Positions 1-20,000 are shown, counted from the first letter of the stretch. The stretch is 20,000 bases of DNA from Psammoneis japonica (GCA_008632985.1 QPGO01000272.1:59898-79897), one strand, 5' to 3'. The notes: generated by a model not told the origin, from the sequence alone. Numbers and translations are program-made.

Positions 1-240
1 TTTGTCGCACGTGCGACAAAATCGCCAAAACATCAGTTGATGAGTGCAGTCTTCGCCGAAAGCCAAACTCATCATGTGGCGCTGCAGTTGACACAACGTC
101 TGTGTTTGGGACACGCCATCGCCAATTAAATGATGATTTTGTCTTGTTTGTCGCCAACGGCCAAAATTTGTCTCAAAGGGCGTTTTTCACGACAAATCGT
201 CCAGCTCATTTGTGGGAATGTCGCAATTGGCGACAAAATG
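1..240. repeat. Cluster of TGTCGC/GCGACA motifs, including a perfect 20-bp palindrome; possible subterminal region of a DNA transposon
   Basis: 1-20 tttgtcgcacgtgcgacaaa is its own reverse complement. Related motifs occur near 148 (tttgtcgcc), 190 (cgacaaa) and 219-238 (tgtcgcaattggcgacaaaa). The transposon interpretation is inference. Confidence 0.35.
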
Positions 241-850
241 CCGTGTGTCCCTGCCCTGGTCCACCATGACCCAACCGCAGGGTCGCTGCCGTCAGTGCGT
301 GCTGGTTCGAGCGGCATTGCCGGTGCAGGTGTCGCCGACGTGGAAGTTTCGTCCAGAAACGCAAGCAAGTCATTTGAAACGGCACCCGTCAGTGCGGAAG
401 GATCGCCAGTGAGTTGCGCCGCCGTAAACTCGGAAGATGATGCCACCTTGAATCTGTGTGGAGTTCAATTGAGAAACGGAACATAAAATGTGAGTCAGCA
501 CACAAGTGGACAGAACGCCACCAAGCGCCACACGGTGTGCATGCTAAAGTGCAACATGACAGCATGCACTCACCCGCAACTGCAGCGACCCTCACTTCTC
601 ACTTGCTCTCTGGTGTGAAAATGACAGCAGTTGTCAGGAGCACGTCATCAGTTGTGGGTGCTGCAGCAACAGATTCAGCAGATTTGGCTGCAAAGCCAGT
701 CTCCCGTTGGTGTTTTGCTTCTTCGCAGGGCGCCGGCAAGCGATGAGCGCCAGCCACATGCACAATCCTGCAAACAACTGGCGAGAGCAAGCAACAGCTG
801 AAGCCAACCGTCACCGGCCGAGGACATTTTTGATCGGCTGAAGGACAAGT

Positions 851-1128
851 CTCAAGGCGCCAACCATCTGCTGCAAACTTTTCGAGGACAACTCGGCTGC
901 ACTCGCAATCGTGAAGGTGCGCCTGAGATGCATCCAAGAACGCGTCACATCGACAATGTCTGTCACCATTTTTGCTCTGAAGTTGCCAACAGAAGCCTGC
1001 TGATTGAGGCTGTTGGCTCCAAACTCCAGCAAGTGGACTTCCCAATGAAAATGCCGGACCTGTCGTTGTTCATCCACCGTTGCCTGTCTGTGCAGGGATG
1101 GCAACAACTCGGACATTTTGGCGTGTGA
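851..1128 (+). pseudogene. Ty1/copia RNase H C-terminal remnant (frameshifted)
   Basis: Reads LKAPTICCKLFEDNSAALAIVKV, then MHPRTRHIDNVCHHFCSEVANRSLLIEAVGSKLQQVDFPMK..QGW. This matches the copia RNase H pattern FEDN..A..PRTKHI..KYHHFR..Q.AD..TK..GW. Confidence 0.85.
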
Positions 1129-2679
1129 GAATGTGTGCACTCCCGTGGTGTGCATCATCATGCCACCAAGTCCTGTGTGCCACAATGACCCTTCAGAAAC
1201 TGCCATCAACTGCCATCAACAACTCGCCCAATCAGAGATCAAGAAATGAATGAGATCGGAGGTCTGGGGTGCAATCGAGAACAGAGCCTCACCTCCATTC
1301 TTCTTTTGTGCAATCATCAAGAACTTTTTGTTCTGGGTGAGTCTTCACACCATGTTCATCTGTGTTGAGTTTGGCACAAATCACTTCTTGTTCTCTGCAA
1401 ATTCTTGTTGGTTTCCAAGTGGAGTGGTTTTTGTTCTCACAATTTGGTGACTGGTCAATTCGCAACTCCCAGGTTGTCCACTTTGCCATTTCCATCTCTG
1501 CGGTGCAAACTGATGCATTCCCACACAAGAAATGCCATCAAGCTGGGAGTGATGGAGAACATCATTTTGCCATCATTCCACAAAAGGAAACTGTGGAACA
1601 GCACAGCTGATGAGTGCAATGATGGCGGGAATGTGGCCAGAGAGCAGTGCCTCATTTCCAGAAATCTGCAAGATTGGCTGAAAAGAAACAAAAAAAAGAG
1701 ATGCGCGCGCATTTGAGTCTCAAGCTCAAATGAGATTCTGGACAAAAAAGCGCAGCTCAGACAAAACATAAACTGCAGCACACATTGGATGCCAGACAGA
1801 GTTCCAGTCCATCAGAGTGTAAACTGGGCAGACACGCTGCACGTGCAACTGCAGTCAAAATCGAGCCAAAGCAGATCACCTCTTTGTCATTTTTGGGTCG
1901 ATTGATTGAGTTCCCAGAAATTGCATCCCAGCACCAACCACCATCTTGGGGTGGATTGGATGGCTTTTTCAAGTGTCACCTCAAGATTTTGCAAAGTTCG
2001 CTCCCTTGCTGAACTTCATGTTGGTCCCACCTTTGTTGCAACAGAGCTTGTTTGCACAACACACAGTGGTTTCATTTTGTGGAAGCTGAAATTTTTGTGT
2101 GAGCATTTGTCAGCTGCTGTGCCACAGTTGTCAGTGGCACATCATTGCAACAGGCAGAGGCTGGGTGTCGGGAATCCAAATGTGCATTGACGTGCAATGC
2201 TGTCTTTGCATGCCAGGCACCCTGCCCGGTGATTGGCTGCAGGGCGCTTTGCTGTCCCCGTCCCCGGGTGCGAATGCACGCGCGGTTGTTGTCCCGGCAT
2301 CTGAGATTGACGGTGCAGCTTGCTGAGCACTGGCTGCATCTGCTGGTCTAAAATGACTGCCAGTGTGGTGCACAAATGAAGTTGTTTGTGAGCTTCACTG
2401 CTGGTGGCAAGACACATCACAATGCTGCATGATCTGCCCTCTCCAGATTTTCTTTTTTCTGGTGCTTTTCCACATTTGTGAGCACATTTTTTCATCATGA
2501 GCACGCAATGGCATTCAAGTGGGATGTGGCACCACAACCGTGTGACAGTGATGGTGCTTTGGCTGTCTTGATGCCAGATGTTGAGGTTGTCTGGGAGCAG
2601 GTGGTCAACATTTGGTCCAGGAATTTGGAGCGCAGCTCAAGCAGGGCTCATTTGGAGTGTGGTGCAAAGGGGCAGACCA

Positions 2680-3004
2680 GCACCATCCTCCTCCCACTGG
2701 GGGTGCCTGGAGCTGATCTAAGACAAAGGGATGCATGATCCCCTCAGGCAATGATGAGTTGCCTGTGACTCTCAGCATGGCTTTTGCCATTTGTCAGCCA
2801 GCCATGCACTTTGTCAAGCAACACACCACCCTCTTGTTCCGCCATGTGCGAGAGGCGATTGCCTGCAGTTTCCTCAAGTTTCATTTCATTGAAGGTTCCC
2901 ACAACCCAGCTGACATCCTCAGCAAGCACTGGAGCCACTCCCAGGTCTGGAACTTTCTTCATCCTCTGATGTTTTGGAGTGTCAATCCCAAGGCTTTCAA
3001 CTGA
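2680..3004 (+). pseudogene. Ty1/copia (CoDi-type) RNase H C-terminal remnant
   Basis: LGVP..GNDE..KQHTTLLFRHVREAIACSFLKFHFIEGSHNPADILSKHWSHSQVWNFLHPLMFW matches the CoDi pol end HRVREAIA..NPADILSKHW..VW..L.PLLFW. Confidence 0.9.
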
Positions 3005-3045
3005 TCCGATTTCAAATCTGTTGCTGTTGACCCCTCAAGCAAACT

Positions 3046-3061
3046 GGGGAGTGACAGGATT
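3046..3061 (+). other. Polypurine tract plus start of a 3' LTR (GGGGAG|TGACAGGATT)
   Basis: Lies just downstream of the RNase H stop. The same TGACAGRA terminus starts the LTRs at 7861 and 8552. The LTR end was not found. Confidence 0.65.
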
Positions 3062-5656
3062 AGAAAGAGATTTTGGTTTGCCACATGTGATTGTGTGTGC
3101 TCTCAGTTTTGCGTGCAGTGCGCAATGCAGTTTGCTTTCAAGCCACATGGCTCACAAGAACAACAACAGCAGTGCCGGTGTCATGACACCAGTCTTTCTT
3201 CTCCTGAAATGGTCTCAGCACAGAGACTCATTTGCCACTTAGACAGCAGCAAGGAGTCATTGTTTTCTTCCACCCACTCATCTTCAATTTCTGTCATGAG
3301 GTCAGGACGCAGAGTCTGAAGGTTCATTGCAAGTGTCTCCTCACACATCTTGGCTTTCCTGTTGGCTGCTTCATGTTTCACTTGGCACAAAACATCCTTG
3401 TGGGCTGCTGAAGCAAAATCTGAGTGGCCACAAAGTGAGCCCCACATCACATGGAAGAATGCAGGAGCACTCACTTCACATTTTTGGGTGCAGACTTCAT
3501 TGGACAAAGGATGAATGGTCCTGAAAATTTGATTGGGAGGGCAGACAGGGCCATTCTGTGGCTGTCATCAGCCAAGGTCTTGCCATCTGATGCCGGATTG
3601 CTCCGCAAATGTGTGTTGCCAGTTTTTCTTTTTTCTCTGACAATTTTTTGCTGCATCAAAATTTTCAGCTCTGTGGCAATTGCACAAGGAGGTTCAAGGT
3701 TCAAGGCAGGTTTGAGGGCAGTGAGTGGTGATGATTTCCCTTTGCGTCTGCTTGTTGGCGCACATGTGTGCTGCACCATCGCAGCCAGCTCTCAACACTG
3801 CATGGGAGGTCTGTCCTTTCCCTGCCGTTTGCTTGAAACAAACAGTGAGCTTTGTTGACTGCACAAAATCAAATGTTGCAAGTGCAAGCAAAAGCAGCAG
3901 GAGGGCTTCAAAGGGGCAAGGTCTGTGTTTTGGCCAAATCATTGTGAGCTGTGACATGGATGCACAAGGGCAAAAAGAGACACAAGCACAACAATGATGT
4001 GTGCACAAATGAGCGCTGATGATTTGGCTGCTGCACTTGATTGCCTCTCAACCAAGGTCTTTGTGTGACAGTGGAGGTGCAATGCAACATGTTGTGTTGG
4101 CATGACTCACTCATTTGCTCCAGCTCAAGTTGCGCCAGAATGCACAGCACGCATGACTTTGACTTGCAACTGGCATCTTTCCCAATTTTTCTCTCTTTTC
4201 AGCTCAATTTTAACAGCATGGATGGCCTGTTCTGGCCACAGGTGAGGAGCAATCCATCACGTGAGAGGCTTTTTTCTGCGCTGTTTGGCACACTAAAATT
4301 CCTCAAATTTGATTGTTTTGAAAATCAAAAGGTGAGTGCACACAAAAAAATGAGTTTTGTGCACAATCACCCTTCAGGAAAAAACTGATTTTGAAGGAGT
4401 TCATTGTGCTGCTGGAGCTGGAACAGGCCAGACTCTTTCATCTCTGATGTTGTTGTCTCTGTCTCCACCCACCATCAACATTTGAGAGCCACTTCTGGCT
4501 GTCCAACATGTCTGGTGCAACATTGTTCTGACAGCAGAGAAAGTGCAAACATTGCAATTGCGCGGCATTTGTTGTTGTTCAAACATGTCTTTGCTTGTGA
4601 TCATCCATCCAGTTGACAATGTTCTTTCCTTTCCCTTTGCTTGCACAGCACATCATGAATGCTGCAATTTCAGATGAGTTGTGCCACATCCACTGCACTG
4701 ATTCTGTTTGCCCTTTCATTGATGCACACTGCAGCTTTCTCAGTGTCTGACAATTGACAGTGTGTGCCACGCATCTGTGCTGCTGCTGCGCGAGAGGCAG
4801 CTGCTGCATGTGAAGGTGCTGCACAATGTTTGCTGCTTGCACTGAAATTGACCAAAGCATTTGTGTGCATTTGACATGTGAGGCAACAACAGGGCATTCT
4901 TTGATGACATCAATCTCTAGAGTTTGTCTCTGCAACAGGTGCTTTGACTTTTCCTTTGGCATCATTCAAGGCAAGATGCCCCCAAAAGATGACCACCTTG
5001 GTCACCCACCTCAACAATGCCATCGCCTTTCTCCATTCTCCCTCAAAAGACTGGTCTCAATGACAAAGTTTCCAAGCAGTCACCTTTTTCTGATCTGAGA
5101 GGTGTGCTGATGAGTTGTTTGCAGCCCAAGAAACAAGCAAGAATGGCAGATTGTGCTTTTGAGACAGAGCCCCCATTCCTTGCTGTGGCTCCTGTGGCAG
5201 CTCATTTGCTTTGGTTTTGTGTTCTGTGGAGCACAAGTCACTGGAGAGCTGAGAAGAGTGGCATGAAATCAATCCAAGGAAAAGGATTTTTTGGTGCTGC
5301 TCAAAAAATCAGATTGTCAACAGCTCTAAATCAAATTTTTCAGTCATGCAAGCATTTGATGCACTGCCAGTTTTTCTTTTTTCTGATGATTTTTTGCTCA
5401 CAGAAAAGCACTCAAGAGAGAGCATGGCAATGTCAGTTGACCAATGAAAAGATGTGGAAGTTCACCCAAAACTGACAAGACAAGGAGAGATTGGGCCACA
5501 CATGTTGCCAAACGTTCTGAAAAACAATGCCGTGTTTGCAGAGAAAATGCCATGTTTGTGGGTGGTCAACCAGCCCAGAAACCCAACTGGCTGAGGATGT
5601 GGTGGATGCTCTCTGCGGCTGGGGTCATTCCCACCATCTCAGACCATTGCATTCAC

Positions 5657-5802
5657 TGTCACAATGTCCAGGGCAAAGTCAACAAGCAAAGTTTGATGAT
5701 GAACAAAGGACATCATGACAACTCCAGATGCCAGCTGCTTTGCAGTGACCAAATTGAAGTTGTGAGGAGAGGGGAAGCTCATCACGTCCTCTCTTTGAGG
5801 TG
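5657..5802. repeat. Direct repeat copy A; candidate 3' LTR remnant of the outer copia
   Basis: gcaaagtcaacaa..caaaggacatcatga..tgcagtgaccaaattgaa.ttgtgaggagagg..ctctttgaggtg is shared with 19322-19466. No clear PPT was seen. Confidence 0.6.
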
Positions 5803-6322
5803 TTTTGAGTGATGTTGGTTCCGATGATGCAAGTCATTGCAATGGCAAGTCACAATGACCATCATGATGATTTGACAATCTTCACACTTCAAGCCACACA
5901 GGGGCTGAGTTGGTGGCCAGTGAGACCAAACACACACTTGCCAGCAAGTCGCAAGCCATGGTGGTGCTCCAATGCTGGGTGCCTCTCCCAGCACCACTGC
6001 ATGTCCATCAGCTTTTGACATGTTTGCCACTCTCATGCTGTGGCCAGCCCACCATTTGCATTTTCCAGAGCTGCTGCTTTGTCACTCAAGAGATGAGCGA
6101 CTCCATTTTTGCCAGCCAAAAAGGCAAAGACACCCACAACACACCACTCAAAGGGAGCAGGCTTGTCAGCAAGCTTGTTTGGGGCAAGTGCACAGCAAAA
6201 GACCACAAAAGCAAATGAGGTGACCTCGCACATGTGCTGCATCAATGGGGCCAATTTGTGCTTGGCGCGCACACTCTTCCTGCCCATTGGCCAGACTCCC
6301 AGCCACCCACACACCCCAAAGG

Positions 6323-6631
6323 CCGCTTCATCTGCCACACCACCGGCAGCACCTTGCAGTCTCTTTTCACCTTTGATCTTGGAACAATGGAAAACTTGCC
6401 ATTTTCCATTTGATCCAACACCTGTTTTTGCATTGCCCTCAGGAGTTGTGTGTGATCTGGTTCCTTCACAGCTTGGTGCGTGCACATGGTGTCAGGATGT
6501 GCTGATGCTTTGCAGGCAAGGAGAAGATTCTTCTCTTCTTGCAGTGCTTGTGAGTCTTGGGGATGCATTGCTGTCAAACACATTGTCTCACCCTCAATGT
6601 TGCTCTTTGTTTCGCTGCTGATTTCAGACAT
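6323..6631 (-). pseudogene. Outer copia: N-terminus of reverse transcriptase, truncated after WQMKR
   Basis: LLACKASAHPDTMCTHQAVKEPD..LRAMQKQVLDQMENGKFSIVPRSKV..VLPVVWQMKR matches CoDi AYKA..DPDTMY.HQAM.EPD..F..AM.KE..ILPAVW.MKRKR. Confidence 0.9.
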
Positions 6632-6649
6632 CTGTCCTTGTTTTGAAAA

Positions 6650-7343
6650 AACTCAGTGTGTTGTCGATCACATTGTTGGCCATTTGCATTGCGTGAGGCC
6701 AAAGATTTGCTGTGGTGATTGCCTTTTTCCATTGGCTCTGAGCGTGTCTTAACATGCTTCTTGAGAGCTCTTAGAGTTCACACATGTGGCACTTGGACAA
6801 ACCATTTTGGTGGTGAGTGCTGACCACTGCAAAGGTGAGCCATTGCCCCTGTGTTCTACATGCACATGCCAAGTTGTCAGCCTTGAAGACACCATTGTCA
6901 GCATGACAGCAGGCTTTGACTGTGATGCCACAACCCTTCTTGGTGCATTGCTCGAAAGCACGTTTGCCCTCTGGCATCTGTGCTGCCAATGCAATCTTTT
7001 GCAAACACACATGCCCCAGCTTGAGCCATTGATTGACAGGCACAGCAGTGCACTTGTGCCTTTTGGTCATTGGCCATCAAGTCATTTGAGCAATCAACCC
7101 CAGCATTGGAGATGTGAGTTGATCCACTGATGTGACTTGCCCTGGGCATGTGGGTTTTTCCCTCGTTTCTGGTTGCTTTGTGTTTTGTCCCGCCATCTTC
7201 ATTGCCTTTGCATGCAGGCACACAGAGCAGACAGGTGTGTTGCATTTTGCCAGGCTCTTGGGAAGTGTTCCCAATCTTGCCACAACTTGCAGCTGCTTGA
7301 AACTCACATGACCAAATTGTTGATGGCATTTTAGGAGTGGCAA
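6650..7343 (-). pseudogene. Outer copia: integrase (HHCC zinc finger plus core), frameshifted
   Basis: HQQFGHVSF..CSVCLHAK (HHCC); PGQVTSVDQLTSP..GLIAQMT; EGKRAFEQ..CHADNGVFKA; HHQNGLS; LWPHAM. Confidence 0.92.
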
Positions 7344-7739
7344 TGCCTTGGCAGATCCTTGGCAGTCCTCTTCATCCTTCCTGTTGGTGGCTTGAAGAAT
7401 TCTTCCTGCACCACATTTGGTGTGCTGGAATCTGCTCCCTTTGAGGTTGAACCCGGCAAGTTGTCCATGTCACCCTTGTGCTTGCCGTTCATCTTTGGCC
7501 CGTCCAAGTCAAAAACTGCTGCAGCGGGCCCATTGCCACTCCCAGGAGCCAACCCTGAGTCTTGTGATTGGTCTTGGCCTGCAGGTTGAAGTTTCATGTG
7601 TGGCACTTCAGCCTTGCATTCCACCATCCTTGTCTCAGTCCTCATTGTCGCTGACAATGGAAGCCCCCTCAGCAAGCACAGGATCCTTGGCGCTTCACGT
7701 GCTGGGTCGGTGTCATCCTTGGCACACCAGAATGCTTTG

Positions 7740-7860
7740 CACTTCTCATGTCCCACCACATTGGTCATCTTGCTCAGCGGCACAGTCAGTTGGTGTTTCT
7801 TTTGGCTCCAACAGAGGGTTTCCTGTTTTGAGTTGGTCTTGCTGCCAGACCCTTCCCCAG
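7740..7860 (-). pseudogene. Outer copia: protease C-terminal segment, continuing from 16241
   Basis: GEGSGSKTNSKQETLCWSQKKHQLTVPLSKMTNV is in frame with ..LLSPQHWAKTQWDNEPG once 7861-16240 and one TSD copy are removed. Confidence 0.8.
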
Positions 7861-8366
7861 TGACAGAAATCGAGGAAGGGGTTGGATTTTTCGACAGCCA
7901 ACCTTCACGATGAATGCAGAAACAGTGAATGGCAACAGCGACAAATCAGCAGCACAAACACTGACAGATCACTCCATTCCTTGGTCGGGGAATGGAAATC
8001 TGTTGGCAACAATGGCGCACTCTGGTGCGAATTCCAAAGTGGGCTTGGGTTCGAGTCTCACCAACCACGTGTCTTGGCCGTCGGGGTGTCTGAACATCCG
8101 GGCGTGCCACCACAGGCACAAGACCAGGCACCTCCACCTGGCCAGACCGAAAACTGTTCCTGACCCTGGAACACATGTCCTCATTGTTCACAGGGGCACC
8201 CGCAACGGTCTCTGCATGGAGACTTGTCTGCTGTGTAGACAGCAGCAAAGTGTTGCACACTGGGTCTGGGCTGGAGGAGCTCCACTCACCGTGTCCACCT
8301 GATCTCACATGCACTCGAGTTGCGGAGACAGAGCAAGAGCGAGTCATTCTTGTTCGAATCCTGTCT
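7861..8366 (+). repeat. Uninterrupted 5' LTR (~506 bp) of the short LTR element
   Basis: Aligns piecewise to 8552-8659, 8927-9009, 15394-15508 (inverted), 15668-15785 and 16188-16240. Confidence 0.88.
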
Positions 8367-8657
8367 CAGATTGACAGTCTTGATGACCCTGGTCAATGCA
8401 ATGAGCTCTGATTGAGCAATGAGAACATCTCAAGGACACAAAGTGTGCAAGTGGTGACTGGAGTCAACTCTGGGGCCCGTTTGACAGCAAAGCCAGAAGC
8501 CACTCAAGAGACATGGAAGAATGACACTCAAAGTGTCAGGTCAATGAGGAGTGACAGGAATTGAAGAAGGATTGGATTTTGACAGTCAACCTTTGCAATT
8601 AATGTGGAAAGAGTGAGTGGCAACAGCGACAAGTTGGCAGTGCACGCACCAACAGAT

Positions 8658-8926
8658 CAACAGCAATCTTTCGTGCTGCAGAGTCATTTGCGTAGAAACA
8701 TGTGGAACAGCACCAAGACAATCATTGAAAAGTCTGTCTGTCTGTCCTTAACGATTTTTAACTTTGCGAAAAATGGACTTGACTGTTTTCTGATCAGGTG
8801 CATTTTTCTTCAATGCACTTGCAAAAATGCTCCTGACCCGACAACAGTTAAGTCTGTTTTTGCACAAATTGTGTGAACACAACAGTTTCAGTGCAAAAAC
8901 GTGCAACTTTCAAAAGATTCCCATTG
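8658..8926. mobile_element. MITE-like insertion (~265 bp) in the 3' LTR
   Basis: Absent from the 5' LTR (agatc|actcc at 7966-7975). Degenerate TIRs caacagcaatcttt / aaagattcccattg, with an internal ~40-bp imperfect inverted repeat (8766-8807 / 8823-8864). The TSD is ambiguous. Confidence 0.75.
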
Positions 8927-9009
8927 ACTCCATTCCTTGGTTGGGGAATGGAAACCTGTTGGCAACAATGGCACATTCTGGTGCAAATTCCAAAGTGGGC
9001 TTGGGTTTG

Positions 9010-9193
9010 TGAATGAATGCCACCATGACAGCCAAGAATTGGGTGCAAGACAAGACAGAGTGTCGAACAGCATCAACAGGTTCTAGAATTGTGAGATGTC
9101 ATGCCACTGGGTCCACCAAACAAGCGACAGTGGACCAATCGCCAACAGCACATGAACTGCCTGTGTTCGTGACAGTGTGTCAGCATTTGCTCA
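9010..9193 (-). repeat. 3' LTR (184 bp) of the inner copia
   Basis: TGAATGAATGC...GCATTTGCTCA has TG..CA ends with short inverted termini and matches 15381-15393 plus the reverse complement of 15509-15667. A PPT-like AAGGGGAC lies on the minus strand at 9194-9201. Confidence 0.88.
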
Positions 9194-9344
9194 GTCCCCT
9201 TGAACTGACCCTGGCTCCGCTTGGGCCAGATCAACAGACAAATGCAACCTGATGCTGCCCTGTTCCAGGGCAGCATTTTCATTTTGGGGGTGGGAAAAGC
9301 CACGCCTGTGTGGCAAACCCATTTGGTTTGTCCCCTTTTGGGAC

Positions 9345-9810
9345 TCACCATGAGATGTGACTTGTGGTCTCCCAGAGCTTTGGTCCAGGCAACAACTTGG
9401 TTGACACGTCCACCAGATTCATGCGTCTGTCTTCCCAAGCAATGCGCACTGTCCCAGCAGCTTGTGCCTCATGAGTCCTGTGACAGGCAATTGCATCATT
9501 GTGCTTCTTCTTCAATGCAGACTCTGGCTTGGTTGAGTTCTTGAAGACAGCTTCATTGTCGCAGAAGACATCAGTGGCCCCACCCATGGGGATTCCAAGC
9601 ATTTGAAGCTTGCAGTGCAAGGTTTCAATCTGCTCCACTGCAGCCCTCATTGCTGTGAACTCAGACCCAAAAGCAGAGGACTCTGTGGCATTCGGCCGTT
9701 TAGAGTGGCACAAGAAGGGCACTTGTTGGATGAATGTGTCACAGGATCCCAGTGTGGGACCTGTGCATCACACGGCATCCCACGTGATCAGCATCAACAA
9801 AGCAAGTGGT
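9345..9810 (-). pseudogene. Inner copia: RNase H
   Basis: FVDADHVGC..RSHTGIL; HSKRPNATESSAFGSEFTAMR; LGIPM..VFCDNEAV; KKHNDAIACHRTHEAQAAG..NLVDVSTK. Confidence 0.93.
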
Positions 9811-11001
9811 TGTCATGCTGTTCCCACATGCTTCTGGCATGTTCAGCGGCATTGGCTCAGCCACACCAGGGCAGCACTCTTCCCAATTGCACTCAGCAAA
9901 ATGGCTCTTGTCAAAAGCAGGCTCAGTGCTGTCAAACACTGGCACAGACTTAGAGTGAGCCTCCAAGTGCGCAAAGATGTGGAGCACCTCGTCCAGGTGC
10001 CCAACTCGTGGTGCTGCCAAGTGGGAGGACATGAGCAAGACGGCAACAAAAATGTCCACTTGACCTGGTTCAACCACCCATCAGAGCACACCAACAAGGC
10101 CCTGATGGCAGCCAGCCATTTTGGCATTCAACTCAGGCGAACCATCCAATTCAGGCCCATGTCCCGAGCTCAAGGGCATTGACGCCTTCGTTGGAAGGTG
10201 CCTGTCAGTTTTCTTGCTGGGATCTAACTCAACATCAGCCAATGCCCTTTTGACACACAGGTCAGAGGACACAGCCCAGCGTGTCTTGCCATCCGAGTCA
10301 GACAACTGGTGCTGCTTTCTGATCTGAGCGCCTGAGTGCTCTTCCGGCTTGCAGACACTTCAACCTTGAGCGTGCACCCAGAGCTCATGCAATCCATGAC
10401 TTTCTGAGGTTCATGTGAGACACACAACAAGTTGTCCACATGGACAAGCACATGTTCTCAGTGCTTGAAGCCATCCAGCTTAACAGCAGCTCACATCCAG
10501 ACATCCGGCTCAGCCTTTCAAGACTCGAATCCAGCGTCATGCAAAGCAGCCGCCATGTGCTCCCTAAATCTTGCACCTGAAGACTTGAGACCATGCAAGG
10601 CTCAGACAATGATCGCCGGCCTTCCTTTGTTGTGCTTCCCAAATTCCAGGCCAGCAGCGGCACACCACTTCTCCTTGGTGTGTGCATTCAGGCAGGCATT
10701 CTGAATGTCAGCACTCAAGACCTCCAGGTTGTTGAGAGCCACTGTGGTGAATGCTGTCCCAACACTGTCACGTGAAAGCACACTGGAACAGGTTGATTCC
10801 TTCATCATCATCGCAGAATTCGAACACGGGCATGACATTGCGCATTTCCTTCTTGATGGCCTTGAACCAGAAGTCAGTCCCCATTGCATTGTCCATTTCC
10901 ACAGCTTTCTCAACAGGTTTTGGGAGTTCAATTCCAAACTTGTGCACGCGTTTCCAGTGACGCGACTTGACTTTCTTCAGGATCCTTGACCTGCAACACA
11001 A
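9811..11001 (-). pseudogene. Inner copia: reverse transcriptase (frameshifted, with an internal deletion near 10795)
   Basis: HKFGIELPK..WFKAIKKEM; SSVLSRDSV; ADIQNACLNA; ALHGLKSSGA; LVHVDN at 10431-10448 (the YVDD motif); PELDGSPEL..CHQGLVGVL. Confidence 0.95.
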
Positions 11002-11007
11002 GACGTC

Positions 11008-11481
11008 TCAGACCCACCAGTTAAAAGCTGGTTCACCAGCCACTTTGTTTGCTGCAGCATGCTCAGCAACCTTGACCGGGTTGGATTCCTTCAAATCCTT
11101 GAGAGAAACCCAGGATGTGGTCCCATCCTTCCATTTGACTTGTGGGTCCCAGCCTGCGGTCGTCATCTGAGGAGCACGCCTGCCAGTCTCAGTTGTTGTG
11201 TGCCCGTCATCAGCCTTTTCGGCATGAGCATCAGTTTGGTGATTGACTGTCTCCTTCAGGATCTGGCAGGCATTGCCTTTAGAGTCCTCTGTCTGGGTGA
11301 ATAGATTCTCTGTAATTGCATCAGCAGTGTGGGAGTCAGTGGAACCATCAGGGAATTCCACATCGTGTGCCCCAGAGTCAAGGACAGGGTTGTCATTCCC
11401 AGTGCCAGAAGGAACCCCGTCACTGTCCCGTTTGCATGCAATGACCCTGGCATGGGTCAGCTCACCTCCATGTGGTGACAT
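11008..11481 (-). pseudogene. Inner copia: conserved post-integrase domain with a chromodomain-like segment
   Basis: ARVIACKRDSDG..NPVLDS..HDVEFPDG..ITENL..TTAGW..QVKWKDGTTSWVSLKDLKESNPVKVAEHAAANKV..EPAFNWWV. Confidence 0.8.
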
Positions 11482-11699
11482 GACCTGAGCAGTGAGTCAT
11501 TCGTCAAGCCCCTCTGGGGTGCACTCATCAGCCTCTGGTTCAGAAGCTTTGGGTTCCACAGGTTTGACAGCATTGTCCCATTTGTCCATGAAGTCATCAG
11601 GGAGTTCAGGGAAGTCAGCCTTGACATCCTGTTCTGGGAGGGTGAGCCACTCAATCAGAGCTTGATCAACTCATGCAAGATCTGTCTGAATCATTGGAG

Positions 11700-12540
11700 T
11701 GTTAAGGTCATCCTCTGGCACAGCCCGCGCATCCTTCCGAATGATGAGTCTGCCTGATTCGCGCAGGACAATGAATGCCATGTCGTCAGTGCAGTTGTTG
11801 GCCACTCCGAGCCAACATCTGATGCACTTTTTTCATGTGGGAACTCCACCACAGGCATGTGACAGCAGAGAGGTTGATGCCAATCAAAAGGAGAGAGGGA
11901 TGAGATGTCAGGTGTCGAGCCTGTCACCTCCTCCTCTGGGACTCGTCCTCCCACATCTGACATGCCAGTTGCAATCATGTGTTGGATGTTGCATGTGCAC
12001 TTGGCACTGCAGGAGCACAGTCACCCGTGAGTGCCAGTCCAGTGCAGAGTCATGCGGACCCTCTTCTTCAACTCACAAATGGATGCCTTGGCCAGGTTCT
12101 GCCACGGGCTGTGCAGGGTGGACACTTCCTGATGTGTCCTGTGCTCCTTGCAAATGTCCTTGGTCTGGCCTTCTGCCATTTCTGGCACACCATCCGAAAC
12201 AAGGGTTTGTGGCACTCCAACATCATGTGTGAATGACATGACGGCATCCAGGTGGTCCTGTTTCCTCTTCCAAGGACAGAACCCATCATGCCCTCTTCCA
12301 TTGGCAAATGCACCCTGTCTTGCCATGTGTTGATTTGACCTTCGAAAACATCTGGTCAGAGCAGAAGCATCCCTTGACAGCAGGGAACTTGAGCCATGGG
12401 GCCTTCTTCCAAACTTTCCGTTCGGATGGTGTGCAGACATTGCGGACCCTTGTCTGGGTTGTTGCTCTGAGTGTGTTCTTGGCAGCTGTCAGGCCGATGT
12501 TCCACCTCTTAGAGAGTGTCTTGGGTGTGATGGTTGATGC
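11700..12540 (-). pseudogene. Inner copia: integrase
   Basis: TPKTLSKRWNIGLTAAKNTLRATTQ; SDQMFSKVKS; DVGVPQTLVSDGVPEM; HSPWQNLAKASICELKKR; TGSTPDISSLSPFDWHQP. Confidence 0.9.
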
Positions 12541-12849
12541 ATGACTCAAGGTCAACAGTGCATGCATCTGTTTCCGCTCGGCACAATCCGGGTGGACGTC
12601 CAGGTCACACCAGTCATGCAGCCCATCTCCCTCAAGCAATGTCATTGTGGGAGACATTCACCTGAGCAACCAGGCAGTGATGCAGAGAATTGTTGTCATT
12701 GGTGTCCACAATGATGCTCTTGTCGTGATGAGACATTTGGCGCAAACAAATTGAAGCGACACACCTGGTTGTGTCAATCATTGTCAAGTCACCTGTCTGT
12801 CAGGCTTTGCTGATCCTTGGTGCACACTGGCACACACACATGTTCTTCC

Positions 12850-13320
12850 TCCTTTTGTGCCATGGCATCAGTGGAGGGTTCCCATTTGAGGGGTGGTGTG
12901 AGTTCCAATTGGGGGAGGTTCTCCAGATCCTCCTGAGTCGGCTTGTGTGAGTCAAAGACTGAAGCAACACCTCACACGCGCAAGGGCATCCTGATTTTCG
13001 AGTCAGGGAAAGCAACAAAGTGTGTGCTGTTTGGATCAAACTGGTGAGGGGTGTCATGGGCAGTCAGTCCGTTTGCTCACAGTTGGTTGGGGGCACAGCA
13101 GGGTGTTTGTTGTCCTGTCCCTGAAAAATGCAGCCTCGTGGACTGGCAGCAGGCATGGTTGTCCATTGGTTGGATCAACCCACACGGCAGCAGCTGTGCA
13201 AATAGGAACATTCCTCATTGGCGCACACTCTTTGGAGCAAGGATGCAAAATTGGACCCAACAGCACACGCATCTGCGTGCGAGTCCAAGTCATTCATTGC
13301 CTCACCATCTGGATGTCCAG
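12850..13320 (-). pseudogene. Inner copia: aspartic protease region
   Basis: LDSHADACAVGSN at ~13250-13289 is the CoDi LDSHADT active-site motif. Downstream: VPICTAAAVWVDPTNGQPCLLPVHEAAFF..TLLCPQ. Confidence 0.85.
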
Positions 13321-13429
13321 CAGATGACAGAGAGACATGTGTGTCTTTCAAGAATCACCCAGATAAATGCACAGTGCCAGCAGGTTTAGCAACAGCTGGC
13401 TCTGCACCTTTTGGTGCTGGCGCAACTGT

Positions 13430-14860
13430 TCACTCCTCTTTCTGAGGTTTCTCATGGGCGCTGCATCCAAACTGGGCACCTGCACTGGCAGCAGGCTTGG
13501 AATCTGACTCGTCCAAGTCTTTCCATTTGTCAGCAGCTTTGTGTTCAGGCTCAGCAACAGCCACCTTTTTAACAGCATGAGTTTTGGCATTGGCCGACTC
13601 TGTCTCCAAAGACGTGGCAGCTGCCTTGCATTTCTTCTTGGCTTGCTTTGCTTTGCAGAGCTTCTTGACTTGCTCCTTTTCAGGATCATCAAGAGCACTC
13701 CACTCATCAACAGGACAACGACCTGCCCAGATCCTGGGCTTGTCCTTCTCAGGCGGGTGCTTGCCACCAGGGTTTCCACCCCGGTTGTTGCAGTGTTGGA
13801 CGGATGCCACACCGCGAGTGTCGGCATTGTGGTTCTCAGCATTCTCAACCAGAGTTTTCATGCACTGCTGGCATGCTTCGAAATCTGTGAGCTTCGCCGG
13901 GTCGCCATCCACCACACTCTAGCCAGTCTCCAACCTCGGGTCAGAGACACCCTTGAGAAAGTCTGAGACCTTCTTGGTCTTGGCTGCCAGTTCATCCAGC
14001 TCTGACAAGTCATTGTGAGCTTTCTGATGGCGTTGAATGCACTGGTCAAAAGTGAAATGACCCTGTCCGGTGCACTTTTTGCAGCAGCAATCTGTGCACA
14101 GGCATGGTTCTTGCGGGCAGTGGCAGCAGCCAATCCTTCCGCCTGCCTCTTCAGGGCAAAGAAGGCAGTGCGACCATCGCGACTGCAATTGGAAGGTTTG
14201 ACAAAAGCCCGTCCAGTCCTGCCTGTCACCAAGTTCTTCAGGTGATCACACAGACATTGCCTGTCCTGTGCATGTTGTGCTCCTGCAAGTTGGGCAGCAG
14301 CAATGAGGTCTTCGTCAATGGCAGAGCAGGTGGCACCCAACATTTTGGCGGTGACTGCTTTGTGTTCCCCAACGAGGTGGACAATGGGGGACTCCGGCAA
14401 CAGTGCTGTGATGGTGGCACAGTTTGGTCTCCAGTGACTCTTGGAAGGCAGGCCAGTCACACAGATTCTTGAGCTCCACAGCCGTCTTGGTCATCAAGTC
14501 TTCATCCGAATCTGCCAACTTGAGTTGTTCAAATTCTGTGAGACATGCCATCCATGTGCTGACAGTGTTGCCAGCAAAGAGAGCAGGGGTTGGTTCTTGA
14601 TTCCGGGCTCTGTGGCAGCCAACCCATGCACGTGGGGCCTTGAACTTGTGATTCGCCAGGTGTGGAAATCGGACTTGAGGGTTGGCGGTGGCATCCACAC
14701 CTTTCATGACACTCTCAGTTGTTGCAGTGATTTCTGCCAAAGGGACATGTTCCAGATCCTGAACAGTGGCAAAGCCTTGACCGGCTGCACAGGCACGCAT
14801 CTGCACATTGCATCCACAATGCGCAAGACTTGCAGCAAAGGCTGCGGCAGCAGCCATTGT
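13430..14860 (-). pseudogene. Inner copia: gag (frameshifted)
   Basis: Position between PBS and PR. Motifs: DWPAFQESLET, RDGRTAFFALKRQAEG, FTFDQCIQRHQKAHNDL, KVSDFLKGVSDPRL, DFEACQQCM, EWSAL..EKEQV. Confidence 0.85.
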
Positions 14861-15365
14861 GCATCAATCGTTGTTTGCATTTTGACGTGTGAGCATCCAC
14901 TTGAGCAGTGGAGATTTGTGAGAAAATGTGTGGTTCTCATGCTGATTTGGCAGTTTCTGCCAAACAAACCAGTGAGCAGGCGAGGTCACAACCAAGCAAC
15001 AATTTCTGACAGACATGTGTTGACATGCACAGTGTCCAAGCAGTTTGACAACATGCTTTGATCAATCAAATGTGTGCAGTCAAACAACAGACCTCAACAC
15101 ACAAACCACAATGTTGTCCATGCCACCAATGTTTGTGTGTCTTAGCCTGCATGTTGTCCACTGATGTCATGTTTGACGGATCACAGATCTGGTCTCCAAG
15201 AGCATGTCGTTCACATCTGCAAATGTTGACACACGCACAAAAGACTCAGCAATCACACAAGCAACCATGGGACCAACATGGCACTTGCCACAAAAATTGA
15301 TCAATCGCAATGACACCGTTGTGCCATTCATGATGCCCATTCCAGGCGTTGAACATCACAGCGCA

Positions 15366-15380
15366 TTGGCTCTGATGAAG
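15366..15380 (-). promoter_or_regulatory. tRNA-iMet-like primer binding site of the inner copia
   Basis: The minus strand reads CTTCATCAGAGCCAA directly after the LTR end, compared with the canonical TGGTATCAGAGCCA. Confidence 0.7.
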
Positions 15381-15667
15381 TGAACAAATGCCAGGAACAG
15401 TTTTCGGTCTGGCCAGGTGGAGGTGCCTGGTCTTGTGCCTGTGACTGCAGGTGCGCCAGGATGTTCAGACACACCAACAGCTGAGACACACGGTTGGTGA
15501 GACTCAAATGAACAAATGCTGATGTGCTGTCACAAATGCAGGCAGTTTATGTGCTGTTGGCGATTGGTCCACTGTCGCTCATTTGGCAGACCCAGCAGTG
15601 CAACATCTCACAATTCTAGAACCTGTTGATGATGTTCAACACTCTGTCTTGTCTTGCACCCAGTTCT
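15381..15667. repeat. 5' LTR of the inner copia plus a host-LTR segment, rearranged by a ~275-bp inversion
   Basis: 15381-15393 is the LTR edge in direct orientation. 15394-15508 is the reverse complement of 8050-8160. 15509-15667 is the reverse complement of 9035-9193. Confidence 0.85.
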
Positions 15668-15785
15668 CAGGGGCACCTGAAATGGTCTCTGCATGGAGAC
15701 TTGTCTGCCATGCAAACAGCAGCAAGGTGTCGCACCAGGTCTGGGCTGCAGCTCTGCTTGCCGTGTTCACCTGACGTCGTCAACG

Positions 15786-16183
15786 GACGGGTTCCAATCC
15801 TGGGTGGGACTTTTTGTGACATTGGGCGCGCAGAATTCCACGTGCGAGCTCCGCAGCAAAATTGTCAAGCAATGAAAATGTGAACAATCGCTGACAGAAA
15901 TAGAGGCAATTTTATGAACGTGTCTCCTCCTCCAAATTTGAAGCACGTCATTTGCAGTTTGCCCGGGTGTGTTCTTTGGACATTAAAGAATGTGCCCCAG
16001 CGCATTTTTGTTGTCACAAATGCAGAAAACAGAAAGCCTTTGGCTTCGCAAAAGAGGCAGTGTGGAACAATTTTTTACAATGGAACACGCAGAAATGCAT
16101 GTGCAAAAACATGCGATGGACAACAAAATGCAATTGTGTCACAGTCCAGCAGTGCGAGGTCCCACCTGGAGCTGGAACGCGTC
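15786..16183. mobile_element. GAC..GTC MITE copy 1 (398 bp, 4-bp TSD AACG)
   Basis: TIRs gacgggttccaatcctgggtgggac / gtcccacctggagctggaacgcgtc. aacg lies at 15782-15785 and 16184-16187. The element is absent from the 5' LTR. Confidence 0.85.
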
Positions 16184-16240
16184 AACGCTTGAATGATGGA
16201 GACAGAGCAAGAGTGAGTCATTCTTGCTCAAATCCTGTCA

Positions 16241-16506
16241 CCCAGGTTCATTGTCCCACTGAGTTTTAGCCCAATGTTGAGGGCTCAGCAACCTGTCCTT
16301 CCCACTTGGCATGCAGAATGAATGTGGCATCTTGAGCTTGTGCGCTCTGCTTTCATTGCTCCACCTCCACAGCAGGGTGGTGCCAACCTTGACTCTGGTT
16401 GTTTGTGAACCTCCAAAGCCCTTTGTAGTTCTGTTGCAATCTTGCACTTCGCCAATGAAGTCTTTTGCACAATCGGACACACAACCTGCAGCCCAATTGT
16501 CAGCTC
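16241..16506 (-). pseudogene. Outer copia: protease core
   Basis: ADNWAAGCVSDCAKDFIGEV..TKGFGGS..VGT..LWRW..PHSFCMPSGKDRLLSPQHWAK matches CoDi DN.AS.CIS..DF..IKGFGG..RLLSPQHWA. Confidence 0.9.
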
Positions 16507-17420
16507 GACACCCGTTCCAGATCTGGGTGGGACCTCGCACTGCTGAGCTGTGACATCGACAGTTTTTTGAGTCTTGTCGCATGTCGCGCACGTGGATTTC
16601 TACGTGATTTTTTTGATGTTTTGTGTCATTTTTCGGCAAGGGCTGAGATGAGCGTGCGGATGCAGGAAGTGGTCAGTCCCGCATGCTCGTGACTCAGCAC
16701 TTTCCCACAGTGAAAATTGTGCAGAGATCCGAAGATGACAAAAATGGTCCGACAACTTCTGGTGACAACAACGTCAACTGCATGCAGCGCACATTCGTTG
16801 TTCTTTGACATGTGAATGAACCACTTTGAGCGTCAGATGCAGTCACTTTGACGAACTTCGCCAAAATGACTCTTGGCGCTGCTTTGCGTGCAAAGCTGCG
16901 GTGCTCCGCACGACTCGTCTTTCGTTCGGAGCACCTTCCAATTCGTCAAAGCAGCTGCATCTAACACTTGAAGTGGTTCATTCACACATTAAAGAACATT
17001 GAATGTACATTGCATGCAGTTGATGTTGTTGTTGGCGGAAGTTGTCGGACCGTTTTTGTCATCTTCGGATTTCTGCGCAATTTTCACCGCAGGAAAGCAC
17101 TGAGTCACGAGTGGGCGGGACTGACCACTTCACATTTACGCGCGCTCATCTGAGCCCTTGCACTTGTTGAGCGATCCGTCTGACAACTTTTGACATTTTT
17201 TGTTGCAGCGCGATTCTACAATGTCTTGAGAATCGCGCAGGGCAGGCGAAGTTGCAAAAACATCGAGTGGCAAGAGGCGTGATTGTGCCACAAACTTGGC
17301 CGTTCATTTGATGTTGAAGACAAACGCATCCATCAATTAAATTCTCGCACTGCGGAGCTCGCACGCAGAATTCTGCGGGCCCAATGTCACACGGAGTCCC
17401 ACCTGGGGCTGGAACGAGTC
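16507..17420. mobile_element. GAC..GTC MITE copy 2 (opposite orientation, 4-bp TSD GCTC), containing a foldback insertion
   Basis: Both ends match copy 1. gctc lies at 16503-16506 and 17421-17424. Removing the element restores the frame TFDTDSRPVGADNWAAGC. Confidence 0.88.
16636..17161. mobile_element. Foldback / long-TIR MITE (arms ~220 bp, spacer ~85 bp)
   Basis: 16636-~16856 is an imperfect reverse complement of ~16942-17161 (GCAAGGGCT...AGCCCTTGC). No convincing TSD. Confidence 0.85.
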
Positions 17421-17989
17421 GCTCCGACTGGTCTAGAGTCAGTGTCAAAAGTCACCGTGTGTTCCAAGATGCTCTTGTGTTGAGCCTGCCTTGCCACCAC
17501 AACCCAAGCTGATGCTGCAGCACAACATTGTGGTCACTTGGGGCCCTTCAGCTTGTCCATGGACTGGCAGAGTCTTTGGATTCTCCCTCTTCTGGATGAG
17601 TCGGTGTTGGTGTCCATCACTTCAATGGAGCATGTGACTCATTCTCTGATGTTGCACAATGTGTTGGTCAAATGGTGCCAACCAGAGCGCAGCCTGTGCC
17701 ATTGCTTGCACTTGAGTGCACAGTGTGGTGGATGTCCTGGGTTGTCCTTGCAGTGGGGCGACAAGCTGATGACAAGGATTGCAGCTGAAAGACTGCAATG
17801 AGCACAGGCCATTGAACAGCCTGCAATGATCAGTGTCAGAACTGTGGTTGTGCAGTTGCAAGCTGTTGCACACCATGCAAATGCAGCAGTTGCTTTTAAA
17901 AAAGTGCAGCACAACATCACAAGGTTTCCAGCTGCATTTCCATCTTGCACGTGATTGCAGCAGTTGCAACCGTGGCCGCGCTCTGAGAG

Positions 17990-19250
17990 TCACTCAGAAT
18001 CTTTGTTCGATCCTTCCTTGTTGACAACTGCCTTGCAAGCCTTTGCAAGCTTGAGACATCTCTTGTCATTGTGCTTGTGGCCAAACTTCTCATCCCATCC
18101 ATTGCCGCTCTTGTCTTTGGCTGGCCTTTTCTTGTTGTGCCACTCCGGGTCACATGTGCAATTCTCTGGAGTGTGCTTGTGCCACTTGCCAGGGCATTTG
18201 CCTTCAAGGTCCTTGTGGCAGTGAGCACTCCATTCCAACACTTTGGCTTGGGGATCACATCCTTGGCTGGGTGCAAGTTGTCCTTCATCCACCTGGACAT
18301 GCCCACCTTGTCACCATCTTTTCCCTTTGCCACGCTTGGGGTCATTTTGGTTGTTTCTGGCATTGTCCTTCTTGGCCAGCTTTTTGACTCTTTCTCACTC
18401 AGCACACTCCACTTCTTCTTCTAAACCAAGTTCTTGCACTTGCTGTTTGCAAGCATCATGAGGTGAGCTGGCATGATGTCCTTGCCATCCTCATGTTCCT
18501 CTCTTGCTTGTTTCCAATGTGCTTCACAAAGCTCTTGTCTGAAGCAGCCAAATGCCCTTTGAACAGATTTGTCAGAAGGTCTTGTTCCGTGGTTTTGCTT
18601 TGAGACCTCAAAACTGAAAGGAGGAGAGCCACACACTGATTGAACTTTTGCTGTGTCATGACCAACTGCAGGCAAGCATTGGTCAAGCTCCGCGAGTTTT
18701 GTGCGGACATTGCTCGTGGTCCCGTTCATGTTGAGGAGCGACTCTTGAATGTGATGACCTTGAGAACAAGCAGACAACCAGAAATCTTGTCTCCAATCTT
18801 GTGTGACTTGTCATGGATGCACACCTTGTCCTTTCCACTTTTGGAGATTGAATTGACAAGACAGTGTCCATGCATGGCAGTGTCTTGGGCTGCACAACAA
18901 CGGCTCACAATGCACAACTCCTTGTGTTTTTTGTGTGTGCCCCAAGCTGATCTCACCACAGCTGGTGAGCAGGTTCAAGTGCATTGCACTGGGATCATCA
19001 AGGTCTTTGGGTGTCATGAGAATTCCTGTGACCGGGTCATTCCATCTGAGCAAGCTGGCCCTGTTCTTTTTGACCTTCTTGAGGAACTGAAAGAGTTTGC
19101 CTGGAGTGCTGTCGAGCGCATCTCTCCACTCAGCTCTTCCAAACCAGTTTGGAAGTGTCTTTGTCCAGCACTCTTGTGAAAGTCCAACACTCTTGCAATC
19201 ACCTGAGCTGGAGTCAGAGCAAGTGCAATGTCCTCATCAGAGATGAGGAG
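17990..19250 (-). pseudogene. Outer copia: gag (frameshifted)
   Basis: ALTPAQVIARVLDF; NLLTSCGEISL; AAQDTAM..CLVNSISKSGKDKV; SGCLLVLKVI; VRTKLAELD; DLLTNLFKGHLAASDKSF; zinc-knuckle-like GKCPGKWHKHTPENC. Confidence 0.9.
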
Positions 19251-19321
19251 GACAAGGATGATGGTGCACTTGAAGCACCCGGCGTGTCGTTTCTTGTCTT
19301 TGGCACAGAGGAAGTGTGTGC

Positions 19322-19466
19322 CACCATGACATCCAGGAGCAAAGTCAACAAACAAAGGAGCATGATGGAGACCAAAGGACATCATGATGACTCCAGGCGC
19401 CAGTGTTGCAGTGACCAAATTGAAATTGTGAGGAGAGGAAGTTCATTGCATCTTCTCTTTGAGGTG
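19322..19466. repeat. Direct repeat copy B; candidate 5' LTR remnant of the outer copia
   Basis: Matches 5657-5802 and lies just upstream of gag on the minus strand. No clear PBS. Confidence 0.6.
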
Positions 19467-20000
19467 GGGGGGCAAAAGCACAAAACATGCGCAGAAATCC
19501 CCGCACAGTGACAGACTGCCACTGCGATTCTTGCTGCACTGCGATGATGGTGGCGACACCCAAAATGGCGCGTTGTTGCAAAATGTGAAATGTTCTGGGA
19601 GGTGCAAGAAAAATCGAAATCTTCATTTTTCCTCATTTTCTCCCTCTTTTTCAACACCTCACGGCGTGCCTTTTTGTGCATTGTCTTGTGGCAAACAGTG
19701 AGCAGCAAAGCACGATGCAAGTGAACCGACAGCTGCTGTCCTGAAATCCATTCTGACCCTGCTGCACTGTCCTCTGGGATGACTTTCTGGAGTTGACAAT
19801 CCACTGTGGCTTTGGGTTGGGGCACTGACATGGCAAGTTTGTGCTTCTGTGCATCTTGTGTTTGATGTTTTTTGTTCTTGCCATGTGCTTGCTGCGTGCC
19901 ACCGCGACAGCGGGGAGGGTGCAGAAGTTGTCGTCACCACAGGTGGATTGAGTTTCTGCTGCGGAGCTGTTGGGGTTCTCATTGCAGTCAAAAATTTTCT

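Follow-up and report, generated by a model that had tools for sequence, protein, structure and literature searches.

A stretch of 20,000 nucleotides from Psammoneis japonica (GCA_008632985.1 QPGO01000272.1:59898-79897), referred to here as the window, has lost nearly all of its TpA dinucleotides. It is made up of decayed transposable elements, and we propose that two DNA-level transition processes have rewritten them: ordinary CpG decay, and a much stronger process that converts TpA to TpG or CpA. The second process is sensitive to the bases around its target: TpA followed by a pyrimidine (TAY) was removed faster than TpA followed by a purine (TAR), and the surviving sites have the consensus T-A-R-A. 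We hold the existence of such a flank-dependent TpA mutator to be highly probable.

Products of TpA loss

The dinucleotide content was determined over the whole window (1..20000). The observed/expected ratio (o/e) was 0.05 for TA, 0.37 for CG, 1.86 for CA and 1.67 for TG, at a GC content of 0.50. The TpA frequency was 0.003, and the TA count was between 1 and 12 in every 2-kb block across the 20 kb. As the ancestral-like reference, we used 80 copia-like loci from metagenomes (L001-L080, 308 kb), which have a TA o/e of 0.53-1.00 and include no TA-depleted locus. Scaled to 20 kb, these controls hold ~1020 TA and ~1050 CpG sites; the window is short of ~961 and ~584, respectively. Thus, ~94% of the expected TpA and ~56% of the expected CpG have gone. 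We infer that the loss of CpG is ordinary decay, reflecting cytosine methylation of the repeats; 41 differences between repeat copies within the window set CG against CA or TG, which are the matching products of such decay.

The gain of TG, which is CA on the other strand, was 1567, and 1545 was predicted if all of the lost TA and CpG had become TG or CA. The commonest dinucleotide difference between repeat copies within the window was CA versus TG (41 cases), as would be expected if a shared ancestral TA or CG had been converted independently in every copy. CA versus TG was also seen among the listed differences to other genomic copies (e.g., at 162-163, 11541-11542 and 15314-15315). A further view of the products came from a decayed copia pol region, described below, in which we aligned 28 codons at conserved tyrosine positions (Tyr in >=60% of homologues). 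These codons were CAY (15), TGY (9), TGA (1) and Phe (3), and none was TAY. When the three Phe positions were left out, all 25 of the converted Tyr codons were CAY, TGY or TGA. These results show that the changes are TpA>TpG and TpA>CpA. AA was untouched (2940 in the window vs. 2961 in the scaled controls, a difference of -21; o/e 1.16), and a T on the 5' side of the A is therefore required. The GC content is now 0.50, against ~0.48 implied before the changes.

The RTAY class permits a clean test of strand symmetry. On the coding strand of the retroelement, the gains derived from RTAY were ~+44 for RTGY and ~+41 for RCAY after correction for CpG, indicating that the TpA process acts at the DNA level and is strand-symmetric in this class. 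The process hit the repeat copies individually after their insertion. Single-copy relics and non-coding repeats are TA-depleted as well.

Flanking bases and survival

The 60 remaining TA sites lie within 126..18423, with the first TA at 127 and the last at 18422. Forty of them are YTAR (TTAA 15, TTAG 11, CTAA 9, CTAG 5), 12 are RTAR (GTAA, ATAA, GTAG and ATAG, 3 each), seven are YTAY (CTAC 3, TTAT 2, TTAC 2) and one is RTAY. This exact count bears out the hand tally of the initial annotation (~39/12/7/1 of ~59). RTAR and YTAY are one class seen from opposite strands, and the strand-symmetric classes are therefore YTAR 40, mixed 19 and RTAY 1. The sole RTAY survivor is a GTAC at 17005..17008 (TA at 17006). 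An inverted repeat carries this site in one of its arms and GCAC in the other.

We compared the 40/19/1 distribution with four null expectations. Base composition predicted 15/30/15 (p = 1.6e-13), flanking dinucleotide frequencies predicted 18/29.7/12.2 (p = 1.3e-9), and the creation of new TA by transition from the present NCAN and NTGN predicted 14.5/30.6/14.9 (p = 3e-14). We gave the most weight to the TA classes of the 80 related loci, which predicted 10.9/29.7/19.4 (chi2 = 99, p = 3e-22). Among the controls, 18% of TA sites are YTAR, 49% mixed and 32% RTAY. RTAY is thus nearly twice as frequent as YTAR, and the class that dominates among the survivors is the rarest in ordinary copia-like elements. 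The initial annotation had called for an exact count of NTAN against expectation, and an absence of bias after normalising to ancestral consensus frequencies would have refuted it. The bias stood against all four nulls (p from 1.3e-9 to 3e-22), and the ancestral-like normalisation made it stronger. When identical 12-mer contexts were removed, 39/19/1 remained.

Relative to the controls, YTAR survived at a level of 0.22, the mixed class at 0.038 and RTAY at 0.003. Since ~78% of YTAR has also gone, TAR is a target that is 4-9 fold slower and not a non-target. The earlier description of YTAR as spared was accordingly too strong. Exposure was uneven along the window: in the younger, high-copy block at 15342-18009, the classes are 8/8/1, and in the rest of the window they are 32/11/0. 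The flatter spectrum of this less decayed block is the order of loss that progressive removal predicts.

A second protective position was found two bases 3' of the A (+2). Read on both strands, the survivors give 120 strand-sites, of which 68 have A at +2, compared with ~30 expected (p = 1e-14). This effect was present within both classes of the +1 base. By the +1 base, strand-site survival was 0.125 for TAA, 0.099 for TAG, 0.024 for TAC and 0.013 for TAT. With both positions considered, survival was 0.27 for TAGA, 0.235 for TAAA, ~0.10 for TAAC and TAAG, and at most 0.065 for everything else; it was 0 for TACC, TACT and TATA. Therefore, the survivor consensus is T-A-R-A, and A at +2 is a further protective position as strong as the +1 effect. 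The flank rule first put forward had the TAY context right and overlooked the +2 A. A base-specific analysis of products at +1 and +2 gave impossible fractions (e.g., 2.77 and -0.57). It was set aside and the flanks were used only at the purine/pyrimidine level, because the flanks have themselves been rewritten.

The longer motif TAGAG occurs in 11 of the 120 surviving strand-sites, and TAGAGT (ACTCTA) in 7 of the 120 (4918, 6772, 9701, 9951, 11280, 17434 and others). This motif may mark a protective context that extends further, or a piece of repeat that the sites have in common.

The flank rule was also tested without the survivors. A Y-TA-Y site becomes Y-TG-Y if the A of the TAY strand is hit, and Y-CA-Y if the A of the other strand (TAR) is hit. 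Transitions keep the purine/pyrimidine class, so the class of each flank is still the ancestral one and later decay does not blur this test. Over both strands, the window contained 1322 YTGY and 919 YCAY, compared with 11100 and 11005 in the controls (p = 3e-15). The excess of YTGY was found in 9 of the 10 two-kb blocks. After subtraction of what the controls show and of one half of the CpG losses, the fraction of YTAY resolved as TG was 0.90 (bootstrap 95% confidence interval 0.80-1.01, resampling control loci and 1-kb window blocks). With 0.90 resolved on the TAY strand, the TAY:TAR rate ratio (kY/kR) is at least 4, and ~9 at this value. In the other contexts the gains were in line with prediction, at 468 for RTGY (418 predicted) and 292 for YTGR (331 predicted). 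In both-strand counts against the controls, AT fell by 825 and GC rose by 759, with AA unchanged. This loss of AT and gain of GC are as expected if TAT>TGT and TAC>TGC dominate. The converted Tyr codons followed the same rule: those after a pyrimidine (Y-TA-Y) went to TG in nine cases and to CA in four, and those after a purine to TG in one case and to CA in 11 (Fisher p = 0.004; 0.02-0.03 at laxer thresholds). The model of the initial annotation, in which A is mutated in 5'-TAY on either strand, is thus backed by the product asymmetry, the AT/GC balance and the outcomes of the Tyr codons.

We fitted the class counts with two models. A single-exposure decay model with independent strands reproduced 40/19/1 at kY/kR = 4 (p = 0.37), and a model of equilibrium between creation and removal did so at kY/kR = 9 (p = 0.21). 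A ratio of 2 was rejected under both models, and a ratio of 20 under the equilibrium model. Taken with the product test, the TAY:TAR rate ratio is about 4-9.

Whether the survivors are old or new TA was considered in the copia pol, which holds 12 of them. In several, the A is the first base of a conserved Lys, Arg or Ile codon, and the T falls mostly at a third position, where it is silent. These survivors are compatible with retained TA, although they are ambiguous. The repeats within the window give ~1.5 kb of alignment in total with two copies each, so that the survivors are not polarisable. The flank rule stands in either case, since the class spectrum is shaped by the removal rates whether the survivors are old or new.

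The putative agent and its rivals

We propose the following scheme. Besides ordinary CpG decay, a process that treats the two strands equally, and strikes every repeat copy on its own once it has inserted, turns TpA into TpG or CpA. The change at the A of TpA is ~4-9 times faster in TAY than in TAR, and an A two bases downstream slows the change further. RTAY, being fast on both strands, has become almost extinct, the mixed class has become rare, and YTAR, above all T-A-R-A, accounts for two-thirds of the survivors. The direction of the change, its strand symmetry and the size of its flank dependence follow from the counts above. The agent would be an enzyme directed against repeats or foreign DNA, with a DNA adenine deaminase akin to TadA/ADAT2, which would convert A to inosine, read as G, as the likeliest candidate. 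The natural substrate of TadA has a U before the target A (U33-A34), with C35-G36 following in bacterial tRNA-Arg, which matches T-A-Y. When the window was compared with the context U33-A34-C35, the required 5' T and the 3' C/T preference agreed with it; the one ADAT2 assayed on DNA, that of amphioxus, has a different preference, GAA (PMC10354150).

We consider this combination, namely a context-dependent TpA mutator, a putative deaminase and a transposon graveyard, to be probably the best overall explanation. Adenine deamination as the chemistry of the mutator is a serious candidate, for which we would claim somewhat less than an even chance. It is possible, though tentative, that a dedicated DNA adenine deaminase has evolved from TadA/ADAT2, still reads a target like U33-A34-C35, and has left the TAY-favouring and T-A-R-A-sparing fingerprint as its substrate signature. 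In that case a lineage of protists, which may extend beyond Bigelowiella natans, would use a defence resembling repeat-induced point mutation (RIP) to erase transposons and integrated viruses.

Several points weigh against this explanation. All of the results come from one 20-kb window, the controls are related metagenome elements and not true ancestors, and the enzyme is proposed purely from the footprint in the sequence. A>G on one strand and T>C on the other are indistinguishable in such a footprint, and thymine-side chemistry gives the same one. The product asymmetry is absent from the block 10001-12000, and among the controls the YTGY/YCAY ratio reaches 1.42 in L050 (6.8 kb) and 1.45 and 1.52 in two shorter loci. 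The decay and equilibrium models require different rate ratios (4 vs. 9). Two of the 12 pol survivors (11280 and 11313), where the homologue consensus is Glu/Asp and Ala, fit a new TA created by G>A. The 11:1 outcome of R-TA-Y Tyr codons in favour of CA (His) over TG (Cys) departs from the 1:1 that the model predicts. Finally, deamination of A in DNA has been shown for just one ADAT2, that of amphioxus, and its preferred context is GAA and not TAY (PMC10354150).

With respect to the R-TA-Y codons, the outcome was 12:3 at a laxer threshold, and the RTAY gains over the whole element were balanced (~44 vs. 41). The excess of His may be due to purifying selection while the family was active, Tyr>His being milder than Tyr>Cys, or to chance.

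One alternative places the chemistry on the thymine. The T of TpA would be modified to 5-hydroxymethyluracil (5hmU) or a J-like base by an enzyme of the TET/JBP type favouring R-T-A, and would then mispair with G to give T>C. Read on the opposite strand, T-A-Y>T-G-Y is exactly R-T-A>R-C-A, so all of the counts fit this scheme equally well. In dinoflagellates, 5hmU has been reported mainly in TpA and TpC, and base J replaces T before A in the telomere repeats of kinetoplastids. To our knowledge, 5hmU:A pairs have not been established as highly mutagenic. The authors who described TpA hypermutation in B. natans favour deamination (Mettrop et al., bioRxiv 10.64898/2026.01.13.699255, 2026), and we consider the thymine-side scheme unlikely. 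Another alternative attributes the class spectrum to the creation of new TA: C>T at T/C-C-A, giving YTA (TAR on the other strand), would seed YTAR in sequence already cleared. The fit of the equilibrium model, the dominance of 5' T and of 3' A (30 of 60 each), and the two pol survivors that resemble G>A novelties agree with it. However, context-free creation from NCAN and NTGN predicts 14.5/30.6/14.9, which the data reject; three lines that make no use of survivors, namely the products, the balance of AT and GC, and the Tyr codons, show the TAY preference as well; and the class spectrum is flatter in the less decayed block, as progressive removal predicts. This explanation is decidedly improbable.

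The remaining alternatives, built on agents mentioned in the initial annotation, fit poorly. Error-prone repair synthesis in silenced chromatin by a Y-family polymerase of the pol eta type, with A>G at WA (W, A or T), would be strand-symmetric and DNA-level, as observed. The errors made by pol eta are A>G at WA and fall more often on TA, but AA is unchanged relative to the controls, and a loss of 94% demands a very high and targeted rate. The strict specificity for TpA in the Tyr data and in B. natans (bioRxiv 10.64898/2026.01.13.699255) also stands against the polymerase, which we regard as very unlikely. Decay of a modified adenine, as in N6-methyladenine at ApT, is a poor fit because the loss of AT is what TAT>TGT predicts and the 5' T is obligatory. 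Editing of transposon RNA by an ADAR-like enzyme, made permanent through reverse transcription, would be in keeping with a retroelement being one of the targets. TAG is the optimum of ADAR, which favours a 3' G and tolerates a 5' U or A, whereas TAG is among the best survivors of the window, at ~4-8 times the survival of TAC and TAT, and AA is undepleted. In addition, the RTAY-derived gains on the coding strand are not confined to sense-strand A>G (~44, against ~41 for T>C), 15 of the 25 Tyr codons were changed by T>C, and single-copy relics and non-coding repeats are equally depleted. A 5' U is favoured according to the Discussion of the B. natans preprint, but a transcriptionally silent single-copy insert mutates in that organism (bioRxiv 10.64898/2026.01.13.699255). 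We judge RNA editing to be extremely unlikely.

If the proposed explanation is true, the RIP and APOBEC defences would have their adenine counterpart in a natural and targeted A:T>G:C hypermutation of DNA, and such hypermutation has been reported only once, in the 2026 preprint. The quantified flank rule (an obligatory 5' T, a 3' pyrimidine favoured ~4-9 fold and a protective A at +2) discriminates between candidate enzymes and can be tested directly on the published de novo mutations of B. natans. It also yields a sequence-only detector, consisting of YTGY>YCAY, GC gain, AT loss and RTAY extinction, that is more specific than TpA depletion alone, and the TA class spectrum of L001-L080 provides a baseline for surveys of this signature. 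If the deaminase reading is also true, the fingerprint would allow biochemical identification of the enzyme and a search for the defence in other genomes by sequence alone, and a natural DNA adenine deaminase with a defined context would interest base-editor engineering.

Transposon remnants and comparison with known systems

By composition and scans, the window is a TpA/CpG-poor and CpA/TpG-rich tract of decayed repeats (1..20000). Of the 155 stop-to-stop frames of >=70 aa listed, 148 were scanned against Pfam, the seven left out lying near the 3' end. No intact gene was found in the window among these 148 frames; they gave one weak transposon match (gag_pre-integrs) and three unrelated sub-threshold matches. 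The Rfam and tRNA scans found no Rfam family and no tRNA in the window, and a tandem-repeat scan gave nothing relevant. The matches of a word-indexed protein search were metagenome proteins of <=72% identity.

The copia pol used above is a nearly complete, decayed Ty1/copia-type polyprotein (integrase, reverse transcriptase and RNase H) with frame changes at 9348..13309 on the minus strand. In tblastn, full-length homologues (e.g., P0012, residues 2-1358) align to it in alternating frames. Its frame at 9348-9767(-) had 2866 homologues at E<=0.001 in a sensitive protein search. A second copia-type element is represented by a GAG-pre-integrase domain at 7080..7469 on the minus strand (PF13976, E = 2.9e-6; 27.4 bits, slightly below the cut-off of 28.4). 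This remnant is single copy in run X1, where an identical contig spans 6827-7928 at a depth of ~28. A remnant of the C-terminus of a copia-type RNase H lies at 2717..3001 on the plus strand, as judged from tblastn high-scoring segment pairs in the 2000-3000 bins (11, later 71). Several public homologues of the RNase H region (P0066, P0096, P0113, P0145, P0185 and P0059) have no Tyr or almost none, with His or Cys at conserved Tyr positions (e.g., LRHKL or LRCKL in place of LRYKL). Public data therefore contain further copies that are TpA-hypermutated.

The unique parts of the window were matched exactly by contigs of one public sample (X1-X3) at a depth of ~30-37; this was the one sample listed as containing the window, and no RNA run was listed. 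Summed contig depths were 3000-52000 over 8.7-18 kb and around 2.7-3.3 kb, and these parts therefore belong to abundant repeat families. In run X1, the summed depth was 16000-52000 at 15342-18009 and ~37000 at 2669-3335, compared with ~35 in unique parts. At 80% likeness, 9981 contigs were recovered, representing many diverged copies, and their differences were 1734 transitions and 413 transversions. The very high-copy block at 15342..18009 was delimited from regional tallies and contig depth. Decay is least advanced in this block, with 6.4 TA and 39 CpG per kb, and self-comparison placed inside it the inverted repeat (16636-17161) that carries the single GTAC. Pieces of another repeat, part inverted and part direct, flank the copia remnant at 8050-9193 and 15392-15774, and a 52-nt stretch at 8111-8162 is 100% complementary to 15392-15443. 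These flanking pieces are not long terminal repeats.

The closest known system is that of B. natans. Our literature search on TpA depletion and hypermutation returned this 2026 preprint as the one relevant work, the other matches being largely on fungal RIP. In mutation-accumulation lines, 231 de novo mutations arose in two viral regions that had integrated, one from a giant virus and one from a virophage; 230 of them were A>G or T>C, and all of those were on TpA (bioRxiv 10.64898/2026.01.13.699255). Some lines mutated at a rate of ~1e-7 to 1e-6 per site and generation, and the authors propose an ADAT2 homologue as the enzyme. They also describe TpA-poor, CpA+TpG-rich clusters and coding sequences enriched in reverse transcriptase and DDE domains. 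Hence, TpA>TpG/CpA hypermutation of foreign or repeated DNA is already described there. The change is the same in the window, on both strands, as is the long-term footprint of TpA loss and CpA+TpG gain in clusters of >=3 kb. The thresholds of the preprint (at least 3 consecutive kb with a Rho_TpA no higher than 0.43, together with a Rho_CpA+TpG of 1.52 or more) are passed widely over the 20 kb by the TA, CA and TG ratios given above. The low-TpA coding sequences of B. natans average a TpA frequency of 0.0018, compared with 0.003 here. The B. natans targets include sequences bearing reverse transcriptase, and the window holds a copia-type pol, a GAG-pre-integrase remnant and repeats with hundreds of copies or more. 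The target in the window is likewise foreign or mobile DNA, with no host gene inside for contrast. The evidence differs in kind, being de novo mutations in B. natans and a fossil footprint in the window. The main text of the preprint, as distinct from its supplements, makes no mention of flanking context, and the rule found here, with TAY fast and TA-R-A slow, appears not to have been described before.

Fungal RIP resembles the process in the window in being a DNA-level, dinucleotide-specific transition process that destroys repeats copy by copy and is read as dinucleotide ratios. However, RIP converts CpA to TpA (C>T) and raises TpA and AT, whereas the window has lost TpA and its GC has risen. 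A TA o/e of 0.05 with CA and TG at 1.7-1.9 is the opposite direction, and RIP was rejected as the process at work.

TadA, ADAT2-ADAT3 and the TadA-derived base editors deaminate A to inosine, as is proposed here, although the natural enzymes act on tRNA. The TadA variant ABE8e-A48E edits A in DNA preferentially in YAC (PMC13109818), which indicates that pockets of the TadA type can read both neighbours. Amphioxus ADAT2, when acting on C, prefers TCG (PMC10354150). The APOBEC3 and AID enzymes share with the proposed mutator a deaminase-based defence and a dinucleotide-context footprint in foreign DNA. They deaminate C, giving G>A on the plus strand, and are strand-asymmetric by way of minus-strand cDNA, whereas the change in the window is A:T>G:C and strand-symmetric.

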